Part shown: positions 11,828 through 38,128 of the stretch, one piece after another | Numbering within the stretch: position 1 is the stretch's first letter | How the letters are laid out: every line of letters starts with the position of its first letter | From: Patescibacteria group bacterium | GTDB lineage: Bacteria > Patescibacteriota > Minisyncoccia > Phycocordibacterales > PALSA-1337 | Direction of reading: 5' to 3' | DNA length: 49,850 nucleotides | Assembly (NCBI GenBank): GCA_040387635.1 | Contig: JAZKDJ010000001.1 | Span: forward strand, 1 to 49,850 | The notes under the pieces: generated by a model | The model's input: only the letters and a program-made list of their open reading frames with translations | Database searches by the model: none | What the model was told of the DNA's origin: nothing | Program-made: the position numbers and the translations under genes

Positions 11828-11913
11828 AACGAGCACAATTTAAAGCCTTCTTGACTTATAAATGATAAAATGATACAACTAACAGCATAAACGGCCAGAA
11901 GTCACAGATTATT

Positions 11914-12966
11914 ATGACAACTACAATCAAATTCAAGCCAAAACAGGCCACAAAGAAGCTTCTTTCAGTGCTCCAAGACAGAGCGCGAGATGTTCTTGTT
12001 AATCGATACGGACTAGGTAAAAATACCGAAAAAATGACATTGGATGCCATCGGCAAGATGTACGGTATTACTCGAGAACGTGTTCGACAGATCGAGAACT
12101 ACGCACTTAACAACATCCGAAAGTCAGACGCTTACAAGTCAGAGAGCGCGACCTTCGCGGAGCTCGAAGAGCTTATCCATTCACTTGGAGGAATTGTTGT
12201 TGAAGAAGATCTTCTTAGCCACACCTCAAAAGAACGCTCAATCCAGAACCACCTCCATTTTCTCCTTGTAGTTGGGGAGACATTTAAGAAGCGAAAGGAA
12301 GACGAACATTTCAAGCATCGATGGCATGTGAGCGAGGACCTTGCACGAAAGGTTGAAGAATCTATTCACAAGCTCTACAAGAACCTAAGCGACCAGGACC
12401 TTCTTCCTGAAGCTGAAATGGTTAACACATTCCTTTGCCATCTCCAGGACGTGTCAGAGAAGTACAAGAATCAGGAAATCGTTCGACGATGGCTTTCTCT
12501 TTCAAAGAAAATCGACAAGAACGCAATCGGCGAATGGGGAGTTTCTCATTCATCAAACATCAAGACTAAGGGTATGCGAGATTACGCATTCCTCGTCATC
12601 CGAAAGCACGGATCACCTATCCACTTCCGAGAAGTTGCAAACCAGATCACTAAGATCTTCAAGAAAAAGGCACACGTGGCAACTTGCCATAACGAACTTA
12701 TCAAGGATCCACGATTTGTTCTCGTAGGCCGAGGTTTGTACGCCCTCGCTGAATGGGGATACATGAGCGGAGTTGTGAAGGACGTGATCAAGAAGATCAT
12801 CGATAAGCACGGACCACTCACAAAGGAAGAGATCATCGAGAAAGTACTCAAGGAACGATACGTTAAGGAAAACACTATCCTCGTAAACCTTCAGAACCAC
12901 AAGTTCTTCAGGAAAGACAGAGACGGAAGATACTCAATGTCAGAAGAATTGGCTACAGCGAAATAA
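11914..12966 (+). CDS. Sigma-70 region-4 HTH fused to winged-helix (RNAP delta/HARE-HTH-like) domains
   Basis: N-terminal RYGL....MTLDAIGKMYGITRERVRQIE is sigma region 4; C-terminal PIHFREV...HNELIKDPRFVLVGRGLYAL is a wHTH; sigma regions 2 and 3 are absent. Confidence 0.75.
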   Translation: MTTTIKFKPKQATKKLLSVLQDRARDVLVNRYGLGKNTEKMTLDAIGKMYGITRERVRQIENYALNNIRKSDAYKSESATFAELEELIHSLGGIVVEEDLLSHTSKERSIQNHLHFLLVVGETFKKRKEDEHFKHRWHVSEDLARKVEESIHKLYKNLSDQDLLPEAEMVNTFLCHLQDVSEKYKNQEIVRRWLSLSKKIDKNAIGEWGVSHSSNIKTKGMRDYAFLVIRKHGSPIHFREVANQITKIFKKKAHVATCHNELIKDPRFVLVGRGLYALAEWGYMSGVVKDVIKKIIDKHGPLTKEEIIEKVLKERYVKENTILVNLQNHKFFRKDRDGRYSMSEELATAK

Positions 12967-32687: not shown

Positions 32688-32723
32688 GCGCCGCAACCCC
32701 TTCAGGTTGCGGCGCTTATTTTT
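32688..32723 (+). terminator. Intrinsic terminator
   Basis: GCGCCGCAACC-CCTTCA-GGTTGCGGCGC-TTATTTTT. Confidence 0.8.
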
Positions 32724-32778
32724 ATGGCCGTTAATATATTTTGCCAAATCCAAAAAATTCTGTATACTTTTTCATACC

Positions 32779-33381
32779 ATGACATCTCACAACGAAGACA
32801 ACAAAAAAGACGAAAACGAGCAGCCAGATGAATTCATCATCGAATCCAGCGACCTCGATGACTCTGTTGTAGCTGAAGAATCAGCGCAAGAAACTATCAA
32901 GAAACTCCGCGAAAAGCTCAAGCTTTGCACGAAAGAGAAGCAAGAATATCTCGATGGATGGCAGAGAGCTAAAGCGGAATTTGCCAATGCTCGAAAGCGA
33001 GACGCTGAAGCACAAGCAGAATACAGAAAGTTTGCGAACATGGGACTCGTGGAAGAACTCCTACCTGTACTCAGTAGCTTCGACATGGCTTTTGGTAACA
33101 AAGAAGCTTGGGAGAAAGTAGACAAGAACTGGAGAATGGGCGTGGAATATATCGCTAACCAACTCAAGGGAGTTTTGGAAAATAACGGCATCAAAGAGAT
33201 TGATCCATTGGGTCAACCTTTCGATCCGAACAGGGATGAGGCAATCGAATACATACCGACAGACAAGGAAGGTGAGGATAACTTAATTCTCAAGGTGGTG
33301 CAGAAAGGATATACTTTAAACGGTAAAACAATTAGAGCACCAAAAGTCCATGTCGGCGAACATAAGAAGACGAACCATTAA
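32779..33381 (+). CDS. grpE: Nucleotide exchange factor GrpE
   Basis: WQRAKAEFAN.RKR, ELLPVLSSF, FDPN..EA, VVQKGY.LNGK.IR.PKV.V; ATG 32779 preferred. Confidence 0.95.
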   Translation: MTSHNEDNKKDENEQPDEFIIESSDLDDSVVAEESAQETIKKLREKLKLCTKEKQEYLDGWQRAKAEFANARKRDAEAQAEYRKFANMGLVEELLPVLSSFDMAFGNKEAWEKVDKNWRMGVEYIANQLKGVLENNGIKEIDPLGQPFDPNRDEAIEYIPTDKEGEDNLILKVVQKGYTLNGKTIRAPKVHVGEHKKTNH

Positions 33382-33958
33382 AAAGCGACGGAAGGTTTCA
33401 ACAGTTGATGTTGCACATTTTGTCGCGACCGCAGCGGCCGTCATCGGCGTAAGCTGTCTCATTCTTACTCTTTCATATTTCCTTGGAACAGATCCGCGCA
33501 TGCAAAATGCAGACCACTATGCTGCAGGCGATTCCGAAAGCTCATCTTGGAAATTAGTTTCTTCAGATAACATGGACGTGCGATTCGAAATTCCTTCTAC
33601 CTACGATTATTACGAATCAGAAGACGAGATACTCGTTTACACTTCAAAAAACAAAAGAAGCATCGGCATGGCTGAGATGTCCATCCAGAGAAAAGCCGGT
33701 ACCAGCTCACTCGTGACCTGGAACGAAGACGCTATATCTATCAATCAGTATCGATCAGAGAAAAGCAGGAACACAATCGTATCAACTGCCTACGCAGCTG
33801 ACCGAGGATATGTAGCTCGAAGATATATCATTCTTCCTACTAACGGCGACACCAGCCTTGTTGCTTGGATCTATGCAAACAGACTCAAAGACGGCACCAT
33901 TCGACGAATTATTGATAGTCTTGCGGACACCCGACCCTCTGTTGTAGAATTAGAATAA
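33350..33958 (+). CDS. Membrane-anchored hypothetical protein (202 aa)
   Basis: Basic N-terminus, one TM, beta-rich soluble domain; overlaps the end of grpE by 32 nt. Confidence 0.6.
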   Translation: MSANIRRRTIKKRRKVSTVDVAHFVATAAAVIGVSCLILTLSYFLGTDPRMQNADHYAAGDSESSSWKLVSSDNMDVRFEIPSTYDYYESEDEILVYTSKNKRSIGMAEMSIQRKAGTSSLVTWNEDAISINQYRSEKSRNTIVSTAYAADRGYVARRYIILPTNGDTSLVAWIYANRLKDGTIRRIIDSLADTRPSVVELE

Positions 33959-33982: not shown

Positions 33983-34297
33983 ATGCTTATAACCCAACCA
34001 CAAGGGCATATTTTCGATAGAGTACTGCGCACCAAGGAAGGAAAACTAGTGCGAGTGACTTTTGTCGTTGTATCAGTAGGCGGCGAACTCAAAGCCAAGG
34101 TTTTGAATATTGCTCCTCTTGAAGGACACCAGCCGACACTCAAAGCAGCTGAGATTCTCGCACTCCCAGGCAAGGTTTCAAAAGTTTCCATACTTCCTCA
34201 GAAGAAAACAGGCTTCGAATACAAAAGCATTCTTTCTCCGCTCCAGAATCTTAACTTTTTCATAAGCCAACCAACACGAGCACCATCTACAGTTTAA
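33983..34297 (+). CDS. 104-aa ORF upstream of dnaK; candidate ribosome-arrest (monitor) peptide
   Basis: No signal peptide or TM; C-terminus NFFISQPTRAPSTV with RAP at 34277-34285; possible promoter TTGCGG-N18-TAGAAT at 33921-33950. Confidence 0.7.
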   Translation: MLITQPQGHIFDRVLRTKEGKLVRVTFVVVSVGGELKAKVLNIAPLEGHQPTLKAAEILALPGKVSKVSILPQKKTGFEYKSILSPLQNLNFFISQPTRAPSTV

Positions 34298-34336
34298 GTT
34301 CCGAATTTAGTTTCTACTAAAAGTCTAACTTAAACT
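34291..34336 (+). promoter_or_regulatory. Stem-loop linking the leader stop codon to the dnaK initiation region
   Basis: AGTTTAAGTT (34291-34300) pairs perfectly with AACTTAAACT (34327-34336); inner stem TTTAGT-TTCT-ACTAAA; ends 3 nt before the dnaK ATG. Confidence 0.65.
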
Positions 34337-34339
34337 ATC

Positions 34340-36256
34340 ATGTCAAAAATCATTGGTATTGACCTGGGTACCACTAACTCAGCTGTAGCTGTAATGGAAG
34401 TAGGTACTCCAAAAATATTGGAAAACGCAGAAGGACAGAGAACAACTCCATCGATCATTGCTCAGTCAAAAACTGGCGATCGATTGGTAGGTCTTCTTGC
34501 ACGACGACAGGGTGTTACAAACCCAAAGAACACTATCTATCAGATCAAGCGATTCATCGGACACAACTTCGATGAATCTCAGATCCAGAAGGACAGGTCC
34601 TCAGTGCCATTCGAAATGCAGAAGTCAGCTAACGGAGGTATCGAGGTAAAGATGGGCGACAAATGGTATCGACCAGAAGAGATTTCCGCGATGATCCTCA
34701 CGAAGCTCAAGAATGACGCAGAGACACGACTTGGTGAGAAAGTAACTCAGGCTGTTATTACAGTTCCCGCATACTTCAACGATGCGCAGCGACAGGCAAC
34801 GAAGGATGCTGGTAAAATCGCAGGACTCGAAGTTATGCGAATCATCAACGAGCCTACAGCAGCGGCACTCGCATACGGATTCAACAAAAAAACAAATGAG
34901 AAAATCGCAGTCTTCGACTTCGGTGGAGGTACATTCGATATCTCAGTACTCGAAGTGGGTGATGGAGTCGTGGAAGTGCGATCAACTGACGGAGACGCGC
35001 ACCTCGGAGGTAAGGATATCGACCAGAAGGTCATTAACTGGCTTGCAGACACCTTCAAGAAAGAAAATGGCGTAGATCTCATGAAAGACCCTCTCGCAGT
35101 ACAGCGACTCGATGAGGCGGCTGAGAAGGCAAAGATTGAGCTCTCTACAGCAGTTCAGACTGAGATCAATATTCCGTTCGTAACATCAACAGCAGATGGA
35201 CCAAAGCACCTCGTTGTCACAATGACTCGAGCAAAGCTTGAGGAACTCACACAAGAGTTCATTGATCGCGCGATGACAATCACAAAGCGAGCAATGGAAG
35301 CTTCGCCATTCAAGGTAGGAGACATCAACGAAGTAGTTCTCGTAGGAGGCCAGACACGAATGCCAGCGCTCCAGGCAGCAGTGAAGAACTTCTTCGGCAA
35401 AGAGCCTCACATGGGTGTTAACCCAGACGAAGTAGTGGCAATCGGTGCCGCTATCCAGGGAGGTATTCTCGCAGGAGATGTCAAAGACGTTCTCCTCTTG
35501 GACGTTATCCCACTATCACTCGGAATCGAAACTATGGGAGGAGTTGCAACTAAGCTCATCGAGAAGAACACAACTATCCCAACTTCGAAGTCACAGACAT
35601 TCTCAACAGCTGCAGACAACCAGACTGAAGTAACTATCCACGTTGTGCAGGGTGAGCGACCAATGGCGTCAGACAACAAGTCTCTCGGTCAATTCAACCT
35701 TGGAGGAATCGCTCCTGCACCTCGAGGTATGCCGCAGATTGAAGTTGCATTCGACATTGATGCCAACGGAATTCTAAGCGTCTCAGCAAAGGACAAGGCG
35801 ACCAACAAGACAAACTCAATCAAGATCACAGCAAGCTCAGGCCTTTCAAAGGAAGAGGTTGAGAAAATGAAAAAGGAAGCCGAGATGAACAGCGCCGACG
35901 ACCAGAAGAAGAAGGATACCGTTGAAGCTAAGAACCTTGCGGAACAGCTCATCTACACAAGTGAGAAATCTCTCAAGGAACACAAAGACAAGATCCCTGA
36001 GGACGTAACGAAATCAATTGAAGAAAAGATCACAGCTCTCAAGGGCGTGAAAGATGGACAGGATCTCGCTGCAATCAAGTCAGCAACTGAAGCCCTCTCA
36101 AACGAACTCTCAAAGATCGGAGAGATCATCAGCAAAGCCGCTCAGGAAGAGCAAGCTAAGGCTGGAGCTCAAGGAAATCAGGGCCAGCAGGGAGGTGATC
36201 AGGGAAATGGTGGAGACGAGAAAGTACGAGATGCGGAAGTGAAGGACAATAAGTAA
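34340..36256 (+). CDS. dnaK: Chaperone DnaK (Hsp70)
   Basis: [59 protein letters not shown]. Confidence 0.98.
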
Positions 36257-36377: not shown

Positions 36378-36938
36378 TTATTCCTTAAACTTCATTCCAA
36401 AACTATGTATTCGACTACACACCCAGTGGTGCGTGAACGATGACAGATCCAAAGCTTTGAATTCTTCGCTCGTATGACTTAGAAGCTGTTGAATTGAGTT
36501 GATTCCTTTTTTCTTAAGCGATCTTACAACGTCACTGCGCATCCCTAAATCTTCAAATGATTCCGGCGCCCAAATTGGCGAATCCTTTAAAGCGAACTTG
36601 TGACGAGCAAGCGTAAAACGAATATCAGAAAGGGTTATGTGACTGCTATTCCTCATTCTTAACACTTCAATGGGAGTAAGGCGCAGCAAATCTTCGAGTG
36701 TCGAGACTGTGTTATTTACCAAGACATTCAACACTCGATTACTGAAACCAAGGTCACGAAGATTCATATTCTCAGGAGACTTCGTCACAGTCACCCTGAT
36801 TTTTGGTTCGACTGGAACAGTTTTGACTTGAACTGAGACATCCAAATGCTCCTCAGGTAGGAGTTGGTAACCTTTTTTCTTCGTCAACCTTTTCAAGTAA
36901 GCCGAGAGTTTTTCCTGAATTTTTTCAATCGTGGTCAT
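36378..36938 (-). CDS. Protein with two RNAP alpha-CTD-like domains
   Basis: LRDLGFSNRVLNVL.NNTVSTLEDLL and FEDLGMRSDVVRSLKKKGINSIQQLL both match the alpha-CTD start; promoter TTGACT-N17-TATTGT on the minus strand; ATG 36938 preferred. Confidence 0.7.
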   Translation of the reverse strand: MTTIEKIQEKLSAYLKRLTKKKGYQLLPEEHLDVSVQVKTVPVEPKIRVTVTKSPENMNLRDLGFSNRVLNVLVNNTVSTLEDLLRLTPIEVLRMRNSSHITLSDIRFTLARHKFALKDSPIWAPESFEDLGMRSDVVRSLKKKGINSIQQLLSHTSEEFKALDLSSFTHHWVCSRIHSFGMKFKE

Positions 36939-37033
36939 AACACAAAGAAGACATCTAAAAATACAATATAACGAAACATTCAATTAGTCAACTAATATAA
37001 CATGACCGAAACCTGCTAAACTAAGCGTTAATT

Positions 37034-38128
37034 ATGGCAAACAAAGACTACTACAACATACTCGGCGTCGACAAAGGCGCATCCAAGGAGGACATCAAGA
37101 AAGCCTTCAGAAAATTGGCGCACGAACATCATCCCGACAAGAACAAGGGTAATGATGCCAAGTTCAAAGAAATCAACGAAGCGTACAGCGTGCTTTCTGA
37201 CGACCAAAAAAGAAAGCAGTACGACACCTTCGGATCAGCAGGTCCAGGAGCAGGAGGCTTCGGTGGATTCAATGGAGGACAAGGCTTCGGCGGTTTCGAC
37301 TTCTCTCAATTCAACCAGGGCGCAGGAGGCCAGGGATTTGAATTCGACTTGGGCGACATCTTCGGCGAATTCTTCGGTGGCGGCAGTCCTCGAGGAGGAA
37401 GAGCAAAAAAAGGTCAGGACATCCAGGTAGATATTTCAATAAGCTTCAAGGATTCAGTCTTCGGTGCGAACAAGGAGATTCAGTACGAGCATATGGCTCA
37501 ATGTGATACATGCAAAGGCTCAGGAGGGAAGCCTGGAACATCCATGGATACATGTTCTACGTGTGGTGGAGCAGGTAAGGTAAACGAAACGAGACGCTCA
37601 CTCATGGGAACATTTACAGCGACAAGAATCTGTCCTGAATGTCATGGAGCAGGCAAGGTACCTAAGGAGAAGTGCCATGATTGTCACGGCCAAGGTGTGA
37701 AGGACAAGCGCGAATCTTTGACCGTCAAAATACCTGCAGGCGTTGAGAACGGCGAAACGCTCAGAGTCTCAGGCCGAGGTGAAGCTCTTGCAGGCGGTCC
37801 ATCAGGCGACCTCTATATCGTCATCCATGTTGAACGACACGCAACCATCCATAAGAAGGGAAACGATCTCATCACCAATCTCAAGGTTCCTATGACCACC
37901 GCACTTCTAGGTGGAGAGATTTCTCTAGATACGTTGGAAGAGAAACTTACTATCAAGGTCCCTCAAGGAGTAACTCACGGTGAGATTCTACGAGTAAAAG
38001 GCAAAGGAGTTCCAAACGAGAAGGGCAGACGAGGCGACCTCATGATTACGGTTGCAATCAATATTCCAAAGAAACTTTCGAAGCAGGCACAGAAGTTGGT
38101 GGAGGAATTGAAGAGAGAAGGAATATAA
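37034..38128 (+). CDS. dnaJ: Chaperone DnaJ
   Basis: J-domain with HPD, G/F-rich region, four CxxCxGxG motifs, C-terminal domain. Confidence 0.97.

Follow-up and report, generated by a model that had tools for sequence, protein, structure and literature searches.

A small ORF between grpE and dnaK in an order of Patescibacteria encodes a candidate RAP-type arrest peptide

Introduction

Ribosomes that translate the arrest peptides ApcA, ApdA and ApdP stall with R-A-P-tRNA in the P site (PMC7897499, PMC10951233). Saturation mutagenesis has shown that the Arg of such RAP cores is irreplaceable and that the Pro is so too, save for a partial tolerance of Gly in ApdP. A change of Ala to Gly is tolerated, even with a gain, in ApdA and ApdP, whereas the Ala of ApcA accepts no change (PMC12992588). 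ApdA and ApdP require Pro as the A-site residue. ApcA, whose core reads RAPG, arrests at wild-type level with N, T, S, D or A at this position and more strongly with P or C, and some of its natural homologues are RAPS (PMC7897499). Here, we analyze a small open reading frame (ORF), termed the leader in the following, that ends in R-A-P-S-T-V and lies directly upstream of the chaperone gene dnaK. It is found in a 49,850-nucleotide stretch of DNA (the window; positions 1 to 49,850 of contig JAZKDJ010000001.1, assembly GCA_040387635.1) from a Patescibacteria group bacterium. All bacterial monitoring substrates that have so far been established by experiment carry, to our knowledge, an export signal, through which they report on membrane or secretion machinery.

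Judged by its core, the leader family appears nearest to ApcA, whose arrest is comparatively weak and ribosome-specific. ApcA is encoded upstream of yidC2 in Rhodococcus erythropolis and other actinobacteria and is likewise a small ORF of about 100 amino acids with an R-A-P core. It has three residues past the A site, and in the leader family the stop codon likewise follows one to eight residues past it. ApcA needs a long conserved segment upstream of RAP, and the leader family likewise has a conserved SPYxxLxFFxSQPT segment. However, ApcA has an N-terminal transmembrane segment and monitors YidC, while the leader has a predicted cytosolic beta-sheet domain and precedes dnaK. The two share no sequence similarity outside RAP, and stalling has been demonstrated for ApcA, whereas it is a proposal for the leader.

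A wider group with related cores are the RAPP and RGPP peptides (the RQH family, examples from S. lividans, and CruR/CutF; PMC10987492, PMC12992588). Like the leader family, they are encoded by small upstream ORFs, carry R-[A/G]-P close to the C-terminus with variable sequence on its N-terminal side, and have a patchy distribution that is restricted to certain lineages. The surveys of these peptides required RAPP, RGPP or similar words and returned mostly proteins with secretion or membrane signals. None of the peptides reported in PMC10987492 and PMC12992588 lies upstream of dnaK or of a cytosolic chaperone gene, and the word 'dnaK' occurs 0 times there; dnaK and Patescibacteria are both absent from the three systematic surveys of RAPP-like peptides. 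With the motifs listed there (RAPP, RGPP, RAGP, RAPG and others) the leader family would be missed, because its fourth position is never Pro (RAPS, RAPA, RAPN). A literature search for an arrest peptide upstream of dnaK returned no paper that combines both.

Results

A small ORF at the grpE-dnaK junction

The leader and the gene that it is proposed to control have the following positions in the window.

33983..34297, + strand: leader ORF, 104 amino acids, ATG start, TAA stop at 34295-34297; candidate RAP-type arrest peptide
34340..36256, + strand: dnaK ORF; proposed controlled gene

The leader stop is separated from the ATG of dnaK at 34340 by a gap of 42 nt (34298-34339). Its C-terminus reads NFFISQPT-R99 (34277-79, cga)-A100 (34280-82, gca)-P101 (34283-85, cca)-S102-T103-V104. 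These coordinates confirm what a first-pass annotation, made by inspection of the window, had recorded about the length of the ORF, the gap and the RAP-STV end. The same annotation saw no evident promoter between the ORF and dnaK, and indeed a consensus scan found no sigma-70-like site on the + strand of the leader-to-dnaK interval.

Homologues were collected with phmmer, which was run exhaustively against 1.84 billion representative proteins with a cut-off of E <= 1e-3. They form 115 clusters at 50% identity, nearly all with 92-122 amino acids, a length inside the range of ORFs for RAP-core arrest peptides (about 80-200 amino acids). Those that carry any name are called "hypothetical protein", and the leader and 27 homologues match no Pfam or NCBIfam family. 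The records belong to Candidatus Taylorbacteria and to neighbouring metagenome-assembled genomes of Paceibacteria-type Patescibacteria. Within the taxonomic family of the window genome, 33 of 36 other genomes sampled have a homologue, and all 33 carry it beside dnaK; the lack of the ORF in the remaining three points to assembly gaps, because the N-terminal match to dnaK is missing there too. A profile search detected the ORF in 68 of 301 genomes of the order, spread over about 30 of its roughly 118 families, and gave no credible match beyond the order in 400 genomes sampled across the phylum. The window genome itself contains no second ORF of the leader family.

The gene order is equally constant. 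The arrangement grpE-ORF-dnaK on one strand is kept wherever the DNA extends downstream, namely in 44 of 44 loci of the public genome collection and 20 of 20 loci from other families of the order, so that the expectation of synteny with dnaK in relatives was borne out in every locus where it could be read. Nearly every related locus has grpE on the upstream side of the small ORF. dnaK lies downstream of the leader in all of them and is 75-88% identical between the window and its relatives. In families of the order that have no such ORF, grpE abuts dnaK with a gap of 10-100 nt. Thus, the ORF is a lineage-specific insertion at the grpE-dnaK junction, and its conservation sets it well apart from a chance open frame.

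An invariant R-[A/G]-P core selected at the peptide level

Two nested features define the C-terminus.

34235..34285, + strand: conserved C-terminal segment S85-P86-x-x-x-L-x-F-F-x-S-Q-P-T-R-A-P, from column conservation; 17 residues that would occupy the exit tunnel in its upper and middle part
34277..34288, + strand: R99-A100-P101 core with S102; R and P invariant, A replaced only by G

Homologues are 30-45% identical to the window protein overall, and the conservation falls into three blocks: residues 1-46, Leu61-Pro62, and residues 83-102. The last block has the consensus I-x-S-P-Y-x-x-L-x-F-F-x-S-Q-P-T-R-A-P-S, with 15-17 residues from P86 to P101. The first-pass annotation had suggested to look for selective conservation of a C-terminal QPxRAP motif, and this is what the alignment reveals: R99 and P101 never vary, and A100 is kept in 98% (the remainder being Gly), in proteins that are otherwise about 35% identical. 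Among the 115 representatives 113 have RAP and two have RGP. The residue that follows is Ser in 88, Ala in 14, Asn in 9 and Thr in 4; a single Asp and a single Gly occur in additional loci, and Pro is never found. From the RAP Pro to the stop codon there are 2-9 residues, mostly 2-4. A divergent subfamily ends in FFSTQKTR[AG]P[NT].

Only one of about 150 sequences departs from R-[A/G]-P. This is G306 (L069, 2789-3226), which ends in ...ASQMTCAPNMY and has the Arg of the core replaced (TCAPN); it may be a decaying copy. Another possibly decaying copy is G135 (L083, 3008-3451), in which a 36-residue tail runs past RAPS beside an inserted DUF559-like endonuclease gene.

A search with the full-length protein might favour sequences that contain the motif. 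This bias was ruled out with a profile from which the last ~32 residues had been removed (A4) and which keeps the N-terminal domain, the linker and the Leu-Pro motif. Among the 42 previously unseen homologues that it recovered, R[AG]P followed by 2-4 residues forms the end of 41, and the sequence of the other one breaks off directly ahead of the motif. The residues that precede the Arg vary in this set (SQPT, CTIP, GSIP, NIA, AQPT). Hence, R-[A/G]-P followed by a small residue is the only strictly invariant C-terminal element. The resemblance of the ISQ tripeptide to SecM, to which the first-pass annotation had drawn attention, is for the same reason not meaningful.

Codon counts in 55 non-redundant loci show that synonymous variation is free at every position of the motif. 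The Arg is encoded by all six codons, Ser by both AGY and TCN, and Pro, Thr and Ala by all four codons each. Selection therefore acts on the peptide, and an RNA element or an antisense ORF underneath the motif is ruled out.

The variation within the family (R fixed, A to G only, P fixed, then S, A, N, T, D or G) has the same spectrum as the mutational tolerance of RAP cores. All A-site residues seen are inside the set that is permissive in ApcA, yet all of them abolish arrest in ApdA and ApdP. That Ser follows RAP in the window protein had been noted as a caveat. It is largely removed by the A-site tolerance of ApcA and its native RAPS homologues (PMC7897499), and it holds in so far as ApdA and ApdP demand Pro.

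A cytosolic N-terminal domain and a spacing of tunnel length

Upstream of the C-terminal segment two further features are conserved.

34007..34117, + strand: N-terminal three-stranded beta-sheet domain, residues 9-45, from the AlphaFold2 model; presumed sensor part
34163..34168, + strand: Leu61-Pro62 (L61 87%, P62 71% conserved), amid otherwise unconserved coil

AlphaFold2, run on an alignment of 106 sequences, predicts a three-stranded antiparallel sheet (strands 9-16, 22-32 and 35-45) with a predicted local distance difference test (pLDDT) score of 93-95, followed past strand 3 by coil with a pLDDT of 63-85. Within this domain G20 is invariant and F27 and G34 are near-invariant. The hydrophobic N-terminal stretch holds charged residues in homologues, and the leader has neither a transmembrane segment nor a signal peptide. 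The initial description of a beta-type segment without export signal, followed by a linker of about 55 residues, thus agrees well with the model, in which about 56 residues lie between the end of the sheet and P101 (45-69 across the family, median 54). Because an export signal is missing, the leader is not a monitor of Sec or YidC, and any machine that it monitors would have to be cytosolic. No significant relative in fold or sequence was found by a profile search of the PDB, by Foldseek with the AlphaFold2 model or in Pfam. Pur-alpha-like Foldseek matches were rejected (TM 0.3-0.4); the best Foldseek E-value of 0.046 is not significant.

The Leu-Pro motif stands at a nearly constant distance from the RAP core. 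From L61 to P101 there are 36-40 residues in 91 of the 92 sequences that have the Leu, and about 20 residues within this stretch are unconserved and predicted as coil. On the other side, the distance from G34 to L61 varies from 18 to 44. The exit tunnel of the ribosome is spanned by about 30-40 residues. In a ribosome paused at codon 101, the SPY...RAP segment would lie in the upper and middle tunnel, the Leu-Pro at the exit port and the N-terminal domain fully outside on a tether of variable length. A spacing that is kept over unconserved coil would be hard to account for in a folded mature protein, but would be natural for a nascent chain that is measured against the ribosome. We therefore count this ruler of tunnel length as independent support for an arrest function.

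A helix between the end of the leader and the start of dnaK

The last codons of the leader are complementary to the region in front of the dnaK start codon.

34291..34300, + strand: 5' arm of the helix, AGUUUAAGUU; third base of codon 103, Val104 codon, UAA stop and the next three bases
34327..34336, + strand: 3' arm of the helix, AACUUAAACU; positions -13 to -4 of the dnaK start

AGUUUAAGUU and AACUUAAACU pair over 10 of 10 bp, and the 5' arm starts 8 nt past the first base of the P101 codon. The 66-nt segment folds with -12.6 kcal/mol, compared with -4.2 +/- 1.8 kcal/mol for dinucleotide shuffles (z = -4.61; 0 of 200 shuffles as stable).

Shine-Dalgarno-like words are found in 6.6% of 287 regions upstream of long ORFs of the window genome, compared with 10.8% in a control window, and the positions -12 to -4 upstream of these genes are A/T-rich and G-poor. 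This suggests that the genome initiates translation independently of Shine-Dalgarno sequences. Since initiation then appears to depend on an unstructured A/U-rich zone, which is exactly what the helix covers, pairing of the positions -13 to -4 could plausibly block initiation of dnaK. The mRNA is protected or unwound by a ribosome over roughly 11-16 nt from the first P-site base onwards. Given that the 5' arm starts 8 nt past the first base of the P101 codon, a ribosome that stays at codon 101 would open roughly the first half of this weak, AU-rich helix.

An equivalent helix in the minimum free energy (MFE) structure is present in 18 of 22 related loci with a spacer of <=110 nt. The 5' arm starts 3-11 nt past the Pro codon in these relatives and the 3' arm mostly ends 3-8 nt before the ATG. 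The helices are AU-rich and have energies of -8 to -15 kcal/mol. Taking the tests together, 17-18 of about 23 short-spacer loci have an equivalent that covaries. Their arms comprise at least eight unrelated sequences, for example UUUUAGAUAAUAUU/AAUAUUUAAUCUAAAA, GUUUGCGUAAUU/AAUUACGCAC, UGGAAAUAGU/ACUAUUUCUA and UUGGGCAGAAUUUAG/CUAAAUACUAACCCAA. A consensus structure calculated by RNAalifold from a MAFFT alignment of ten short spacers contained no pairs, as the AT-rich spacers misalign. The helix was therefore assessed without alignment, by comparing the MFE of each locus with dinucleotide shuffles and cognate with permuted duplexes. The MFE is below that of the shuffles in 16 of 23 loci with short spacers (z of -2.3 to -9.9). 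Cognate duplexes of leader tail and pre-ATG region have a mean of -6.96 kcal/mol, while permuted ones have -3.69 +/- 0.40 kcal/mol, and 0 of 20000 permutations were as low. At L016 the closing helix is retained with a 231-nt spacer, the insert being placed in the loop. Twelve relatives that have no leader ORF show no helix between the grpE stop and the dnaK start. The helix is thus a companion of the ORF and not a general property of this junction, and a general grpE-dnaK coupling of the order is ruled out as its explanation. Rfam gave no match at E <= 1 between 32600 and 34600, hence no curated thermometer such as ROSE or fourU is present; it is possible that the AU-rich helix behaves as an RNA thermometer.

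The arrangement has the same geometry as SecM-secA of E. coli and MifM-yidC2 of B. subtilis, in which the arrest site, like the candidate site here, lies a few codons before the leader stop; SecM has four residues past its A-site residue, a Pro. In both systems, as in the window, an mRNA helix covers the downstream initiation region, with its 5' arm within or just past the footprint of the stalled ribosome, and feedback on the immediately downstream gene is proposed for the leader as it operates there. However, SecM and MifM are released when Sec or YidC pulls on a signal or transmembrane segment, and their helices sequester a Shine-Dalgarno sequence, whereas the leader has neither export signal nor Shine-Dalgarno sequence. 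In the leader family the helix is also restricted to about half of the members and lies over the A/U-rich zone from -13 to -4.

The order has no recognised heat-shock regulator

The first-pass annotation had remarked that hrcA and CIRCE are absent from the window. This holds for the window genome as a whole and beyond: HrcA (PF01628) is found in 0 of 61 genomes of the order, the window genome included among those without it, while control genomes scored, and no CIRCE element within 4 mismatches occurs in the 566-kb window genome. CtsR was found in 0 of 21 genomes, and 0 of 21 had an RpoH match above the cut-off. An order without recognised heat-shock regulator leaves room for a post-transcriptional device at dnaK but does not prove one. 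The known systems, namely HrcA-CIRCE, sigma-32 with its titration by DnaK and DnaJ, HspR-HAIR, CtsR, and the ROSE and fourU elements, have the same outcome as the one proposed here, in that dnaK output rises when folding or chaperone capacity is compromised. The proposed sensor at this locus would be a nascent peptide on the ribosome and neither a repressor nor a sigma factor.

In the search for RpoH every relative gave a sigma-70-type match of ~145-178 bits to the RpoH model, which is presumably the primary sigma factor. The window genome (566 kb, a single contig) gave only a partial match of 38.6 bits at 11899-12123. Its primary sigma factor gene may be missing from the assembly, which has a completeness of 80.6%, or may be unusually divergent.

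Discussion

On balance, we think that the ORF is rather probably a RAP-type arrest peptide that controls the translation of dnaK, as judged from its conservation, its spacing and the accompanying RNA helix. According to this model, the ribosome on the leader would pause when its P site holds peptidyl-...SQPTRAP-tRNA (Pro101) and its A site Ser-tRNA. The SPYxxLxFFxSQPT segment would then line the tunnel and Leu61-Pro62 would be located at the tunnel exit. The end of the leader, from its last codons to the stop, can pair with the positions -13 to -4 of dnaK in the window and in most short-spacer loci. A ribosome at codon 101, which would cover about the first half of the 5' arm, would keep the dnaK start open, and the helix would re-form once the ribosome is gone. 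The duration of the stall would be set by the fate of the exposed N-terminal beta-sheet domain, 45-69 residues away from the peptidyl-transferase centre, and engagement of DnaK and DnaJ, folding or assembly of the domain, and temperature are candidates for what sets it. The outcome would be a feedback control of dnaK in organisms that have no HrcA/CIRCE, CtsR or RpoH.

Several observations weigh against this model. The A-site residue is never Pro, and of the characterised RAP peptides only the weaker and species-specific ApcA accepts Ser or Ala. The RNA evidence alone speaks for translational coupling and not for arrest, because a terminating ribosome would open the helix as well. The conserved N-terminal domain, together with a coil whose pLDDT is 63-85 and not below 50, would also fit a stable mature protein. 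The strongest reservations come from loci in which leader and dnaK are not joined by a helix. The first-pass annotation had expected fixed distances from the motif to the stop codon and to the dnaK start; the former keeps to a narrow range, but the spacing from the leader stop to the dnaK ATG ranges from 31 to 1727 nt, and in about a quarter of loci another gene lies in between. Where the spacer exceeds 120 nt, which is the case in about half of the loci, there is no complementarity between leader tail and dnaK start, with one exception in about 30 loci. In about 12 loci a small antisense gene is inserted and a terminator hairpin abuts the leader stop, and in five loci a DUF167/YggU-like gene of 70 amino acids lies on the same strand between leader and dnaK. 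The leader remains intact in these gene-interrupted loci, with N-terminal domain, Leu-Pro motif and RAP tail, so that a helix-based control of dnaK in cis is not its only role. Interrupted lineages must then either regulate dnaK in another way or have a leader with a further, helix-independent role. This is the main reason why our confidence in the model is not higher, and it lends most support to the alternative of a trans-acting accessory protein.

The inserts themselves are of several kinds. Repeated insertions of small genes between leader and dnaK are seen at L002, L009 and L047, at L011, L026, L035, L038 and L062, and at L003, L018, L021, L051 and L056. The antisense inserts encode either membrane peptides of 55-76 amino acids or proteins of 72-84 amino acids that share a '...TWCRVDE' motif. 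Spacers of 120-160 nt are filled with palindromic arrays of GAATC-, ACGAAT- or GAATTA-like words at L050, L022, L036, L005 and L020, and the spacers of L063, L067 and L097 contain perfect GC-rich hairpins of at least 20 bp. These arrays and hairpins look like insertions of dispersed repeats, similar to repetitive extragenic palindromes or miniature inverted-repeat transposable elements (REP/MITE-like).

If the leader arrests the ribosome, DnaK itself might be what is sensed, a proposal that we regard as tentative and rather doubtful. Free DnaK and DnaJ would bind the chain next to the exit and end the stall by entropic pulling, so that the helix could close on the start of dnaK. Damaged proteins that titrate DnaK away would prolong the stall and raise the translation of dnaK, which would amount to a ribosome-based homeostasis of Hsp70 in bacteria that no longer have HrcA, sigma-32 and CtsR. 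In this reading the leader may be the first monitoring substrate of a cytosolic chaperone. At a RAP|S stall the last ~38 residues would be in the tunnel, and the sheet and the hydrophobic xLxLP would be exposed as an incompletely folded, client-like surface. The monitored gene being dnaK would fit with this idea. A lone amphipathic sheet would presumably be unable to bury its hydrophobic face as long as the C-terminal 38 residues are held in the tunnel, and the hydrophobic xLxLP would be situated at the exit, the place at which Hsp70 would exert its strongest entropic pull. On the other hand, profiling of arrest peptides in vivo has shown that deletion of dnaKJ mostly raises arrest release (PMC12290083), hence DnaK mostly lowers the folding force on nascent chains and tends to hold them unfolded rather than to pull on them, which does not favour a simple pulling mechanism.

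The same observation suits a pause in which DnaK is not sensed, be it intrinsic and transient, released by folding or dimerisation of the N-terminal domain, or tuned by temperature with the helix as thermometer. This variant of the arrest model is a real possibility, if a doubtful one, and we give an intrinsic or temperature-tuned pause with an AU-rich helix a weight similar to that of DnaK sensing. AU-rich helices that occlude the start region of a heat-shock gene are what thermometers look like, and an ApcA-type arrest with Ser or Ala in the A site would be intrinsically weak. However, force profiles indicate that a domain 45-69 residues from the peptidyl-transferase centre is too far away for its folding to pull the chain, and this applies to the N-terminal domain, whose end would be too far from the tunnel. 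The conservation of this domain and of the Leu-Pro motif implies a specific interaction rather than a passive pause, and the locus has no thermometer match in Rfam. A pause of this kind would place dnaK under control of heat or folding stress without chaperone feedback.

A different explanation dispenses with stalling altogether. The ORF might encode a small mature accessory protein of the DnaK system, the FFxSQPTRAP tail of which docks to DnaK, GrpE or DnaJ, and the helix would then serve ordinary coupling. A loose parallel would be DafA, a small DnaK-DnaJ assembly factor from the dnaK operon of Thermus thermophilus. Like the leader, DafA is a small lineage-specific protein of this operon and has no wider homologues. 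We found no similarity in sequence or fold between the two, and we know of no RAP-type C-terminal motif in DafA. The constant position of the ORF between grpE and dnaK would fit an accessory protein, and the persistence of the motif where antisense genes and terminators part the ORF from dnaK would fit a product that acts in trans. Its partners are highly conserved (DnaK 75-88% identical) and could hold a docking motif invariant. FF followed by a basic residue resembles known DnaK-binding peptides, and the leader tail recalls these. However, DnaK is promiscuous in what it binds, and docking to it would not require R-[A/G]-P to be invariant or the next residue to be S, A, N or T; this spectrum matches the tolerance of RAP arrest. 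A folded protein offers no evident structural reason for a spacing of 36-40 residues from Leu-Pro to RAP over unconserved coil, the helix between tail and start covaries with the last codons of the ORF and is absent without it, and neither the PDB nor Pfam contains a structural or sequence relative. We consider an accessory protein unlikely for these reasons. Still far less probable is that a conserved gene of unrelated function happens to be part of the operon and that RAP likeness and hairpin are coincidental. RAP tripeptides are common, and a few random ORFs of the window genome also end in RAPx; hairpins are easily found in AT-rich spacers, and in very short spacers shuffles reach 8-10 linking pairs. 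Chance would nevertheless have to explain R and P that are invariant over about 150 diverged sequences, including those found without the motif, a tail-to-start pairing matched by 0 of 20000 permutations, a window hairpin with z = -4.6, and a strict synteny.

If confirmed, the leader would be the first such switch on a cytoplasmic chaperone rather than on secretion machinery, and nascent-chain sensing would be extended to cytoplasmic protein folding. The arrest core would then work in nature with Ser, Ala, Asn or Thr in the A site. It would also explain how Hsp70 is controlled in a genome-reduced order of Patescibacteria that has no known heat-shock regulator. With stalling confirmed, the logic of arrest core and leader helix would be the same as in ApcA, SecM and MifM, and the cytosolic sensor domain, the chaperone target, an A site with neither Pro nor Gly, and an initiation region without Shine-Dalgarno sequence would be new. 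More than 150 natural sequence variants as well as helix variants are available to dissect RAP-type arrest. Even without stalling, the leader is a previously unnoticed small protein that is strictly linked to dnaK and has an extraordinarily constrained C-terminal motif.

Neighbouring genes

The remaining genes around the leader and dnaK are the following.

32776..33381, + strand: grpE (Pfam GrpE, PF01025, E = 2.8e-39); first gene of the operon
33350..33958, + strand: orf202, 202 amino acids, one predicted transmembrane segment; between grpE and leader
36378..36983, - strand: gene with likeness to the RNA polymerase alpha C-terminal domain; antisense, between dnaK and dnaJ
37034..38128, + strand: dnaJ ORF; downstream of dnaK in most related loci

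As listed, the grpE ORF begins with TTG at 32707, but the ATG at 32776 is the likelier start; the consensus scan found a promoter-like site near it, at 32741-32768. orf202 overlaps the 3' end of grpE by 32 nt and matches no Pfam or NCBIfam family. In a tblastn search it was matched only in L001, the window's own locus, and it is absent at this position in related loci. By this comparison orf202 is specific to the window genome and stands outside the conserved module. The antisense gene parts dnaJ from dnaK, and dnaJ is therefore probably on a separate transcript here. This antisense gene encodes a free-standing protein (Pfam RNA_pol_A_CTD, 1e-9) with two stretches that are similar to the C-terminal domain of RNA polymerase alpha.

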